Source: Bacteroidota bacterium
GTDB lineage: Bacteria > Bacteroidota > JABWAT01
Assembly (NCBI GenBank): GCA_020161835.1
Contig: JAIUNL010000017.1
Location: 36,634 to 100,633 of the forward strand
Direction of reading: 5' to 3'
Length of the DNA stretch: 64,000 bases
Shown here: piece by piece, positions 4,372 through 18,681 of the stretch
How the letters are laid out: every line of letters begins with the position of its first letter
Numbering within the stretch: the stretch's first letter is position 1
Notes under the pieces: generated by a model
Databases searched by the model: none
Told to the model about the DNA's origin: nothing
Seen by the model: the letters and a program-made list of their open reading frames with translations, nothing else
Translations under genes and position numbers: made by a program

Positions 4372-5301
4372 TTATTTTGAATCTTCCGGGCGGAGAATTT
4401 TATATTCGGCTTTTAATTCTGTTATCAATTTTTCAAATGCTTTTGATTTCGTCAGATTAAGAGCAGCCTTTTTAATTGATTCTTCAGGTACAACAGTCTC
4501 CCGACGATCTTCAACTTTGATGATATGAAGTCCGAATTGAGTACGAAGAATGCCAGAAACCTCCCCTTTGGGTAATGAAAAGGCAACTTCTTCAAATTCA
4601 GGAACCATGGTACCACGTTTGAAATAACCAAGATCACCACCAAACTTTGCTGATCCATCTTCAGAATATTTCTTGGCCATTGCAGCAAAGTTTTTACCGC
4701 CAGCAGCCTTGATTTCTTTTTCAATTCCTTCAAGTTTTATTCCAACTTTTTGAATTTCGGAAGCCGGTGCATCAGGAGTAACTTTTAAAAGAATATGTGA
4801 AGCTTTTACTTCAAAATTTTTCATTACTTTTCTGGCAGAATCCAGAGCTGAAGAATCTGCAACTGTTATTTTCTCATCTAAAGTAGCTTTCAGGTATTTG
4901 CCAATCATCGATTGTTCCTGAACATCACGTTGCCAGTCTTCAAATGTCATACCTGCTTCTTTCAACTTTTTGTTGAGAAGGGAGTCTGAACCAATTTGAC
5001 CTTTGAACATGGTAATGAAACGGTTTACTTCTGTTGAATCAAAAACAAATCCTTCTTTTTGGGCGCGTAAGGCTAAAAGAGCATTTTTAACCATACCATC
5101 AATAATTTGCTCTCTGATCTTGATGCTGTCATCAGCATTGTGGGTGCCCATTTGTTCAAGATAGTTTTTTACAGCCGCGTCAACACGAACTTTCTTAATG
5201 GGAACGGTGTCGACTCTGAGCAATTCCTCATCTTTAAGTTTATCAGAACAGGAATAACCGGTAAGTATTGCAGCTGCAATAATCAAATAAATTCTTTTCA
5301 T
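4372..5301 (-). CDS. Parvulin-type peptidyl-prolyl isomerase lipoprotein (PrsA/SurA-like); start at 5301 rather than 5466
   Basis: MKRIYLIIAAAILTGYSC lipoprotein signal; ASHILLK, FAAMAKKYSED, GGDLGYF..G.MVPEFEEVAF, TQFGLHII. Confidence 0.9.
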   Translation of the reverse strand: MKRIYLIIAAAILTGYSCSDKLKDEELLRVDTVPIKKVRVDAAVKNYLEQMGTHNADDSIKIREQIIDGMVKNALLALRAQKEGFVFDSTEVNRFITMFKGQIGSDSLLNKKLKEAGMTFEDWQRDVQEQSMIGKYLKATLDEKITVADSSALDSARKVMKNFEVKASHILLKVTPDAPASEIQKVGIKLEGIEKEIKAAGGKNFAAMAKKYSEDGSAKFGGDLGYFKRGTMVPEFEEVAFSLPKGEVSGILRTQFGLHIIKVEDRRETVVPEESIKKAALNLTKSKAFEKLITELKAEYKILRPEDSK

Positions 5302-5329
5302 GGAGTGTCCTATTGGTAAAATTGAACGG

Positions 5330-5337
5330 CAAAAATA
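5330..5337 (-). promoter_or_regulatory. Bacteroidota-type -7 box for the PPIase gene
   Basis: TATTTTTG on minus strand (TAnnTTTG consensus) 28 nt upstream of ATG 5301. Confidence 0.55.
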
Positions 5338-5370
5338 GGCAAGTGAATAACGGAATGAAAATAAAAGGGC

Positions 5371-5527
5371 AAAAAAAAGGGGAAGGCGTCCCCATACCTT
5401 CCCCCTGACAGGCGGAATAGAGCGTCCCCACACTCTATTCCTTCGAGCGAAGTAAGGAGTCCCCATTCCTTACTTCTCAATGTGGTCTCCAGAAAGTGGG
5501 TATCTGGTCAGACCAAAACAATTTGTT
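5371..5527 (-). ncRNA. Candidate multi-hairpin small RNA with three UGGGGAC loops and an intrinsic terminator
   Basis: Four hairpins (5483-5515, 5449-5476, 5414-5441, 5379-5404); the last three have perfect, mutually unrelated stems around the same loop core; last stem followed by U8 (5371-5378); promoter upstream. 5' end estimated. Confidence 0.65.
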
Positions 5528-5532
5528 AACAG

Positions 5533-5563
5533 CAAAGTTACAATGGTGCAGAAGTCAAGTCAA
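5533..5563 (-). promoter_or_regulatory. Bacteroidota-type sigma70 promoter for the candidate sRNA
   Basis: TTG (5563-5561), 20-nt spacer, TAACTTTG (5540-5533) on the minus strand. Confidence 0.6.
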
Positions 5564-5608
5564 TAGTGCTGAGATTAGAAATTAATTGATATGAGCCTGT
5601 TTACTAAA

Positions 5609-6019
5609 TTAAAGAGAAACTTCGCCTCTCCAAACTTTATAACCGCCGCCAAGAAAATAAACCTTCGGGAATCCCTTCCTCGCAAGTTTGGTGGCAATTT
5701 TCTTGCTTCTGGAACCCGTTTCACAATAAATAACAATTGGTTTTTCACGGAAGTTTTTAATCAGAATATCATCGGCTTTAAACTTACGGTAATCGACATT
5801 AACACTGCCACCAATTTTGCCGATTTTAAGTTCAACGTCTGTTCTTACATCCAAAAGCAAAAAATCACGGTTTGCTTTATTTGATTTCAGGTATTCTTTT
5901 AATTCTGAAACATTGATTTTTTCGACATGACCACCGATTAATCGGATGTAAATCATATCAGCAGATTTGGAAAGGATAAGAAGCCCAATAACGAGAACAA
6001 GAATCAGGTCAATTGACAT
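5609..6019 (-). CDS. Rhodanese-like domain protein with N-terminal membrane anchor
   Basis: LLDVRT..E...GKI.GS.N; IVIYCETGSRS; LGGGYKVW. Confidence 0.85.
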   Translation of the reverse strand: MSIDLILVLVIGLLILSKSADMIYIRLIGGHVEKINVSELKEYLKSNKANRDFLLLDVRTDVELKIGKIGGSVNVDYRKFKADDILIKNFREKPIVIYCETGSRSKKIATKLARKGFPKVYFLGGGYKVWRGEVSL

Positions 6020-18630: not shown

Positions 18631-18681
18631 ACTTTGTCCCATGTCCCAAGTCACTGGTTTTTTACCTTCAGCAAAACCCAA

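Follow-up and report, generated by a model that had tools for sequence, protein, structure and literature searches.

A putative small RNA gene with three phased YGGGGAC hairpin loops in an uncultured Bacteroidota-type lineage

Analysis was done of a stretch of 64,000 nucleotides (nt) of Bacteroidota bacterium (assembly GCA_020161835.1, contig JAIUNL010000017.1, positions 36,634 to 100,633 of the forward strand), hereafter the window, in which a predicted small RNA (sRNA) is placed between the gene of a rhodanese-domain protein and the gene of a lipoprotein having a SurA-like N-terminal domain and a parvulin domain. The coordinates of the window are used throughout and the element is read on the minus strand, from 5563 to 5371. 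It is made up of a promoter of Bacteroidota type, a first hairpin D and three further hairpins A, B and C, the last of which runs into a tract of eight U (Table 1). The gene downstream, called the parvulin gene here, was assigned from its Pfam matches (Rotamase_3 8e-28, Rotamase 5.6e-26, SurA_N_3 4.4e-11).

Table 1. Features of the sRNA locus and of its two neighbouring genes, in window coordinates
Feature	Position	Strand	Description
sRNA promoter	5533..5563	-	TTGAC (5563-5559), 18-nt spacer, -7 box TAACTTTG (5540-5533); Bacteroidota type
Predicted sRNA, ~156 nt	5371..5526	-	5' end placed from the -7 box, 3' end at the U8 tract
Hairpin D, 5'-most	5483..5515	-	ACCCAC within the loop
Hairpin A	5449..5476	-	GAAGUAAGGA / AUGGGGAC / UCCUUACUUC; 10-bp stem, loop AUGGGGAC at 5466-5459
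Hairpin B	5414..5441	-	GGAAUAGAG / UGUGGGGACG / CUCUAUUCC; 9-bp stem, loop UGUGGGGACG at 5432-5423
Hairpin C and U8	5371..5406	-	GGGGAAGG / UAUGGGGACG / CCUUCCCC; hairpin 5406-5377, loop UAUGGGGACG at 5396-5387, U8 at 5378-5371
-7 box of the parvulin gene	5330..5337	-	TATTTTTG; perfect TAnnTTTG, 29 nt before the ATG (5301-5299)
Lipoprotein, downstream neighbour	4372..5301	-	309 aa; SurA-like N-terminal domain and PPIC-type (parvulin) peptidyl-prolyl isomerase domain (Pfam)
Rhodanese-domain protein, upstream neighbour	5609..6019	-	136 aa; Pfam Rhodanese 9.1e-18

The three hairpins A, B and C have stems of 9-11 base pairs (bp), the stem of B being extendable by a U.G and a G-C pair, and all three carry UGGGGAC in the loop, with the starts of GGGGAC separated by 35 and 36 nt. 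Hairpin C is an intrinsic terminator which also bears the loop motif; it was found together with its T-run by the terminator scan, and it is the only one of the three to be followed by a U-tract. The minimum free energy fold of 5371-5535 consists of exactly the hairpins D, A, B and C (-66.2 kcal/mol, z = -4.3), and none of 200 shuffled sequences folded equally well. The promoter, the hairpin D with three hairpins after it, the loop spacing of 35-36 nt and the U8 tract had been described in an earlier, sequence-only reading of this DNA, and that description is accurate by sequence, fold and terminator scan. From the position of the -7 box and of the U8 tract we infer that the transcript ends at 5526 and 5371.

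The cluster has no second copy in its genome. The heptamer TGGGGAC occurs four times in the window, three of them being the loops of A, B and C. Hairpins with GGGGAC in the loop and a stem of at least 7 bp number 13 in the whole genome (4.4 Mb), and three of these lie here within 110 nt while the others are unrelated; permuted control hexamers yield from 4 to 103 such loop hairpins genome-wide, from which it follows that GGGGAC is not common in loops and that the cluster is unique. BLAST of the stretch against its own genome (36 contigs) returned one place, and the covariance model described below gives one match above chance there. A dispersed repeat, whether of the repetitive extragenic palindrome (REP) kind, a miniature inverted-repeat transposable element (MITE) or a heptamer array, is ruled out by the single genomic locus which BLAST, covariance model and loop-hairpin count agree upon, so that the genome-wide dispersal which the sequence-only reading had named as grounds against its candidate is not the case. 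No match at the gathering score was obtained with Rfam 15 over the whole window, and a search of 5200-5750 at E <= 10 gave five weak and irrelevant matches, none of them on the hairpins on the right strand; the suspicion of a family not yet recognised has thus stood up to Rfam 15. Literature on the UGGGGAC motif gave no bacterial sRNA among the matches listed, and that on sRNAs of Bacteroidota, Chlorobi and Ignavibacteria gave nothing relevant among the matches listed. We rate the element, which belongs to an uncultured lineage, as a new RNA family whose general kind is known.

The family, the order and the class to which the window belongs each consist of the same four species-level genomes in three genera, namely that of the window (G000), G003 of the same genus, G001 and G002, which are 92-99% complete. 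The element is present in all four and the covariance model R1, which was built from these four sequences, scores 117-128 bits in each. In every case it occupies the same site, between the rhodanese-domain gene and the gene of the SurA-like/parvulin lipoprotein and on the same strand as both, and upstream of the RNA the C-terminus of the rhodanese protein can be recognised each time; the homologues looked for between these two genes on the advice of the sequence-only reading are therefore there throughout the class. The motif TTGAC-N18-TAnnTWWG stands at an equal relative position in the four homologues, and the predicted RNAs of 154-183 nt follow one plan, in which a 5' hairpin of unrelated sequence is followed by three more, the last of them ending in a U-run. 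Each homologue has its own promoter and its own intrinsic terminator, as a stand-alone sRNA gene should. In G003 the rhodanese gene has, in addition, a terminator-like hairpin and T-run of its own ahead of the sRNA promoter.

The promoter itself is of a type in use in this genome. The strict motif occurs 29 times, 16 of them upstream of open reading frames (ORFs), and the looser form TTG-N19-21-TAnnTTTG lies within 150 nt upstream of crude ORF starts in 77 of 298 cases, the reversed control giving 7 of 368, a difference in placement from which its use as a promoter is concluded.

Outside the class the search was negative. The covariance model, run over 150 genomes of the phylum, matched eight from outside the class at 18-30 bits, none of which has a GGGGAC loop. 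A scan of 400 phylum genomes for a pattern of three GGGGAC matched 15 outside the class, and by eye all of them, among the matches listed, are either coding sequence or repeats of a tandem or CRISPR-like kind. Pattern scans of genome and metagenome contig collections gave 7 and 14 loci respectively, and of these 21 the model confirms two, which are G003 and G001 again. As far as searched, the RNA is restricted to a single small class within a phylum of Bacteroidota type. Runs of 14 studies, on wastewater, activated sludge, lake and groundwater, contain near-identical DNA.

Within the four genomes the loops are kept and the stems vary. All 12 of the loops contain GGGGAC, with U before it in 10 cases and C in the other 2, and the motif always sits against the 3' arm. 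In the four-sequence alignment standard pairs fill 99.1% of the pair cells, compared with 50-64% when the partners are slid, and compensatory double changes are seen in 7 of the 27 stem pairs, compared with 0 or 1 in the slid controls. These double changes fall on hairpin A (4 of 10 pairs) and hairpin B (3 of 9), none being found in C, whose stem is nearly invariant; RNAalifold predicts the same three helices independently. With four related sequences the covariation is to be taken as support and not as proof of the structure. Six G.U cells would become A.C mismatches on the opposite strand, which makes the minus strand the functional one. A conserved small ORF is argued against by one-base insertions and deletions between the homologues and by stops in every frame in G001 and G002. 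An ORF starting from the AUG in loop A was considered and rejected, as only in G000 does it share the frame of the parvulin gene, that frame being stopped or the AUG missing elsewhere; the frame of 364 aa (4372-5466, minus strand) reported by the ORF lister is an artefact of this AUG, and the real start, ATG at 5301-5299, opens a lipoprotein signal peptide.

A hairpin is predicted by folding at the position of D in all four homologues, and its sequence is not conserved. Nor is the pairing between loop D (CCCAC) and loop B (GUGGG), which the sequence-only reading had offered as a possibility, a conserved one, CCCAC being missing from the 5' parts of two of the four homologues.

The three hairpins are, by comparison across the genomes, diverged tandem copies of one unit of 35-36 nt and not independent inventions. 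In G000 the units are 56-58% identical to each other, no closer than the shuffled background of 53 +/- 6%, and Tandem Repeats Finder (TRF) reports no such array in the window itself. In G001 the units A and B are 86% identical and TRF reports a period of 35 with 2.5 copies and 85% matches, and the unit B of G001 is 69-78% identical to all three units of G000. The unit consensus is GGRRUAAGG(U)-UGGGGAC-(A)CCUUAYYCC-GCCUGUCA, in which GCCUGUCA forms the linkers. The internal identity in G001 and the matches across genomes show a triplicated unit in which the stems have drifted with compensation and the loop core has remained fixed. When the sequence-only reading argued from a fixed loop on fully different stems to selection on RNA structure, the selection is supported by the covarying stems and the fixed core, while its view of the stems as unrelated has to be given up, the stems being those of diverged copies.

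On this evidence of anatomy, conservation, covariation and single copy we consider it likely that the locus is a real, selected, stand-alone structured RNA gene. As to what the RNA does, the reading which we favour, and to which we give somewhat less than an even chance, is a stand-alone, trans-acting sRNA of about 155 nt and of a new family, which would most likely be a multivalent protein-binding platform; that its mechanism is titration of a protein is held tentatively. Transcription, action in trans and protein binding are the steps which we infer. A near-consensus housekeeping promoter would drive independent transcription of an RNA of about 155 nt, in which a variable hairpin at the 5' end precedes three tandem ones, the third doubling as terminator. 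Each of the three would present a single-stranded YGGGGAC at the 3' side of its loop in a fixed phase of 35-36 nt, and the RNA would act in trans with the three equivalent loops as its working parts. The loops may then serve as a decoy or sponge for an RNA-binding protein which is specific for single strands and is neither CsrA nor Hfq, and a protein bearing one RNA recognition motif (RRM), which all four genomes encode, is the only candidate partner that can be named. Recognition by a protein or an oligomer is preferred somewhat over seeds on account of the fixed phase, the constant stem length, the motif lying flush with the 3' side of the loop and its being kept even in the terminator loop, and also because GUCCCC is not enriched at gene starts and the best such site is kept in only one of the three other genomes.

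A partner of the CsrA type is unlikely, as CsrA (PF02599) was found in none of the four genomes by a search which was positive in three control genomes; Hfq (PF17209) was likewise found in none of the four, the control genomes again being positive. Single-RRM proteins of about 100 aa are encoded in all four genomes, one or two in each. Two reports on Bacteroides thetaiotaomicron describe its RRM protein RbpB as binding single-stranded regions of sRNAs (PMC11697453) and as binding a triple G/U/A-rich GUAGGAUA probe with a Kd of 5.1 uM (10.1101/2021.04.27.441718). By analogy the RRM protein may be taken as a candidate partner, and nothing more.

Several points weigh against the favoured reading. 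Nothing ties the loops to the RRM protein, the binding preferences of RbpB being broad in these same two reports (PMC11697453; 10.1101/2021.04.27.441718); neither GGGGAC nor GUCCCC was found in the leaders of the RRM genes; and RRM proteins occur also well outside the class, so they give no account of the narrow distribution of the RNA. No transcript of the sRNA was observed in the assembled contigs of four RNA runs. The comparison stands on four sequences from three genera, all of them kin, its covariation stems from few events, and hairpin C shows none. In G002 no clear -7 box lies in the stretch of about 30 nt from the end of the U-tract to the parvulin ATG, and read-through or a role in cis may be the case in that genome. 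The search for targets, on which part of the preference for a protein depends, was a crude one made with ORF-based gene calls in one genome only.

A separate observation concerns the RRM genes. Ahead of a glycine-rich single-RRM gene of about 100 aa (L044, on contig C10 of G000, upstream of 20479; L045 in G003) there is a leader-like region of about 200 nt, with long blocks conserved between G000 and G003. As judged from its sequence this leader may be a cis-regulatory RNA, for which the Chlorobi-RRM motif is the comparison.

The predicted sRNA was compared with known systems of repeated hairpins or repeated motifs. Like CsrB, RsmY and RsmZ it would be a stand-alone multi-hairpin sRNA, multivalent and ending in a terminator, which repeats the same purine-rich loop motif, and GGGGAC contains GGA. 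It differs from them in having YGGGGAC loops instead of A(N)GGA, in having only three sites, in its host without detected CsrA and in matching no Csr/Rsm family of Rfam even at E <= 10. With the multi-seed sRNAs (cuckoo/CcsR, RsaE/RoxS and LhrC) it shares the repetition of identical short loop motifs in one small RNA. The motifs of that group are C/U-rich and pair with G-rich ribosome-binding sites, whereas the motif here is G-rich, complementary sites that are enriched or conserved were not found and no Rfam match was obtained; in particular the CCUCCUCCC loop motif of cuckoo/CcsR is not present in these G-rich loops, and that has no Rfam match either. The sequence-only reading was right in placing the loops outside both designs, as YGGGGAC is neither A(N)GGA nor CCUCCUCCC.

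Type III antitoxin RNAs (ToxI-like) have a promoter, tandem direct repeats of about 36 nt, a terminator and then a gene on the same strand. The succession of repeats and then a terminator is found here also (the TRF array of G001; the three units and U8 of the window), but the downstream gene codes for a SurA-like parvulin lipoprotein and not for an endoribonuclease of the ToxN/AbiQ type, and the repeats are sequence-diverged hairpins. The guanidine-II riboswitch (mini-ykkC) consists of two small tandem hairpins with a G-rich stem, an ACGR tetraloop and covarying stems. The tandem hairpins with identical loops and covarying stems are common to both, and GGGGACG resembles a G-rich stem followed by ACGR; however, GGGGAC lies here in predicted loops of 8-10 nt and does not form stem and tetraloop, the hairpins number three, Rfam gave no match at E <= 10 and no transporter or carboxylase gene is downstream. 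To GibS and FopS of Bacteroides, which are associated with RbpB, the likeness lies in the sigma-A promoter of Bacteroidota type, the Rho-independent terminator and a host with single-RRM proteins and without Hfq and CsrA (PMC11697453). The same source describes FopS RNAs as having one single-stranded 5' seed and then a terminator hairpin, with many copies per genome, whereas the present sRNA is single-copy with three looped motifs; it also gives the FopS structure as deposited in Rfam (PMC11697453), yet the present sRNA matches no Rfam family.

Four other explanations were weighed against a protein-binding platform. The RNA could be a base-pairing sRNA with three redundant G-rich seeds, whose YGGGGAC loops kiss target sites of the form GUCCCC(R); we regard this as rather unlikely, although it shares the anatomy and the conservation evidence with the favoured reading and an invariant single-stranded core of 6-7 nt is of the size of a seed. 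The pairing would be like that of RsaE/RoxS, LhrC and cuckoo RNAs, whose C-rich loops pair with G-rich sites. Complementary sites of 8-10 nt do exist near a few gene starts, for example CGUCCCCAUG, which spans the start codon of a gene that we take to be 2-phosphosulfolactate-phosphatase-like (ComB-like), and another at 35 nt before the start of a gene which is presumably 5-enolpyruvylshikimate-3-phosphate (EPSP)-synthase-like. Against this, sites at gene starts are not enriched: GUCCCC occurs 37 times within -80 to +40 of crude ORF starts where its frequency in the genome leads one to expect about 26, and heptamer arrays specific to G000 account for roughly ten of the 37. The CGUCCCCAUG site is kept in the congener G003 and lost in G001 and G002, and seeds need no fixed phase or loop position. 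GUCCCC in tRNAs was found in 2 of 42, inside stems and at the level of chance. The heptamer arrays just mentioned are dispersed tandem repeats of the form (GTCMCYN)3-4, of which the unit GTCCCCN is an exact complement of the loops; the three-unit pattern has 124 matches in G000, none in G003, none in G001 and 5 in G002 (all GTCAC-type), and arrays of at least 3 units number 67 in G000. As a conserved target of the sRNA they are rejected, since the sRNA is kept in G003 and G001 where the arrays are absent.

In the next explanation the RNA acts in cis on the parvulin/SurA-like gene, as its leader or attenuator; transcription would begin at the upstream promoter, and a factor bound to the loops would set termination at C against read-through. 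It draws on the placement of the RNA directly upstream of the parvulin gene and on its strand in all four genomes, on the spacing in G002 described above and on the repeats of G001, which as read from the sequence would let the 3' arm of B pair, in a shifted register, with the 5' arm of C. Such an antiterminator is unavailable in G000 and G003, and in G000 the parvulin gene has a perfect TAnnTTTG box whose distance of 29 nt from the ATG is typical (genome median 40 nt, 10th-90th percentiles 14-122), while the sRNA promoter lies 232 nt from the same ATG, beyond the 90th percentile of 122 nt and with a terminator between. Contigs assembled in Logan from four metatranscriptome runs of two studies (X9, X14, X15 and X18) extend over the parvulin gene and over some of the rhodanese gene and leave out 5337-5640; at the parvulin gene they stop at 5301, 5305, 5311 and 5325, and none enters the terminator. 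These stops are a weak hint that the parvulin mRNA begins downstream of the terminator, given that assembled contigs cannot show transcript starts, and together with the -7 box they make it appear that the gene has a start of its own, as the sequence-only reading had maintained. Contigs and library size selection are uninformative for a structured RNA of 155 nt, so the uncovered 5337-5640 counts neither way on expression. No known attenuator family was matched in Rfam, and a role as attenuator is on balance improbable. Very improbable, in our judgement, is a functionless element at the rhodanese gene's 3' end, either the relic of a tandem repeat or a stack of hairpins like terminators. The tandem copies of one 35-36-nt unit (TRF in G001), a genome rich in short tandem repeats and an sRNA expression that is not shown speak for it; but three genera have retained promoter, loops, phase and terminator through changes in the 5' part and, with compensation, in the stems, a neutral repeat would not keep 12 of 12 loop cores, and a hairpin stack is at odds with a U-tract on C only. 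The slightest probability is given to a mimic of the anticodon loop of tRNA-Pro(GGG), which would titrate or report on a protein reading that loop. Proteins of this kind are the G37 methyltransferase TrmD and prolyl-tRNA synthetase, and a comparable case is the thrS operator, a mimic of tRNA-Thr. In G000 tRNA-Pro(GGG) has UUGGGGU as its anticodon loop, tRNA-Pro(CGG) has UUCGGGA and then C, and the sRNA loops are of the form N-U-GGGG-A-C; yet these have 8 nt (6 nt in B if extended) against 7 nt, on stems of 9-11 bp against 5 bp, and any G-rich loop resembles a Pro anticodon. A connection with proS or trmD was not seen, no search aimed at one having been made.

Some observations were made alongside these alternatives. 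Over some 940 nt of the parvulin gene, the strain in the sludge metatranscriptome runs X9 and X15 shows 15 positions of difference from the window. The tRNA-Pro genes of G000 are at C3:32279-32353 and C1:190813-190887, and the neighbour gene of the sRNA codes for a prolyl isomerase; the likeness of tRNA-Pro loop and prolyl isomerase is probably a coincidence. The heptamer arrays, which recall the short tandemly repeated repetitive (STRR) heptamers of cyanobacteria, are rapidly gained or lost between the congeners G000 and G003. They are often followed by GGCNTTTA and often adjoin a second heptamer class (CCGTAAY/CTGTGAC), and arrays of the GTCAC or GGGGACT type are sporadic in other families of the phylum. 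One array lies in the window at about 18636-18654 on the plus strand (C32:55269-55287). Some arrays immediately precede, in what appears to be the same frame, a coding motif ..VYRLKQ(L/I)DLDGT (C9:76862, C9:80276, C15:190031, C29:8711, C29:19428, C29:21862, C30:48143 and C26:146636), which we take to be a type IX secretion C-terminal sorting domain, and such repeats thus seem, from the reading frames, to lie inside the coding sequence of several paralogues.

The value of the finding is limited by a narrow distribution, over four species-level genomes, and by an uncultured host. The locus illustrates how a multi-loop RNA may arise, by tandem triplication of one hairpin followed by compensated drift of the stems. 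We think it doubtful, though worth stating, that this is the first protein-titrating sponge sRNA of a Bacteroidota-type lineage, whose phased YGGGGAC loops sequester a global RNA-binding protein of RRM type or of a new type. If true, it would be an independently evolved analogue of the Csr/Rsm system in organisms without CsrA, Hfq or a known sponge; in a bolder version of this reading the loops would imitate the anticodon loop of tRNA-Pro(GGG). Post-transcriptional control of the Bacteroidota type, which is without hubs in the style of Hfq, CsrA and ProQ, is poorly understood, and the RNA could lead to a new RNA-binding protein or a new class of targets in this uncultured lineage of wastewater and sludge.

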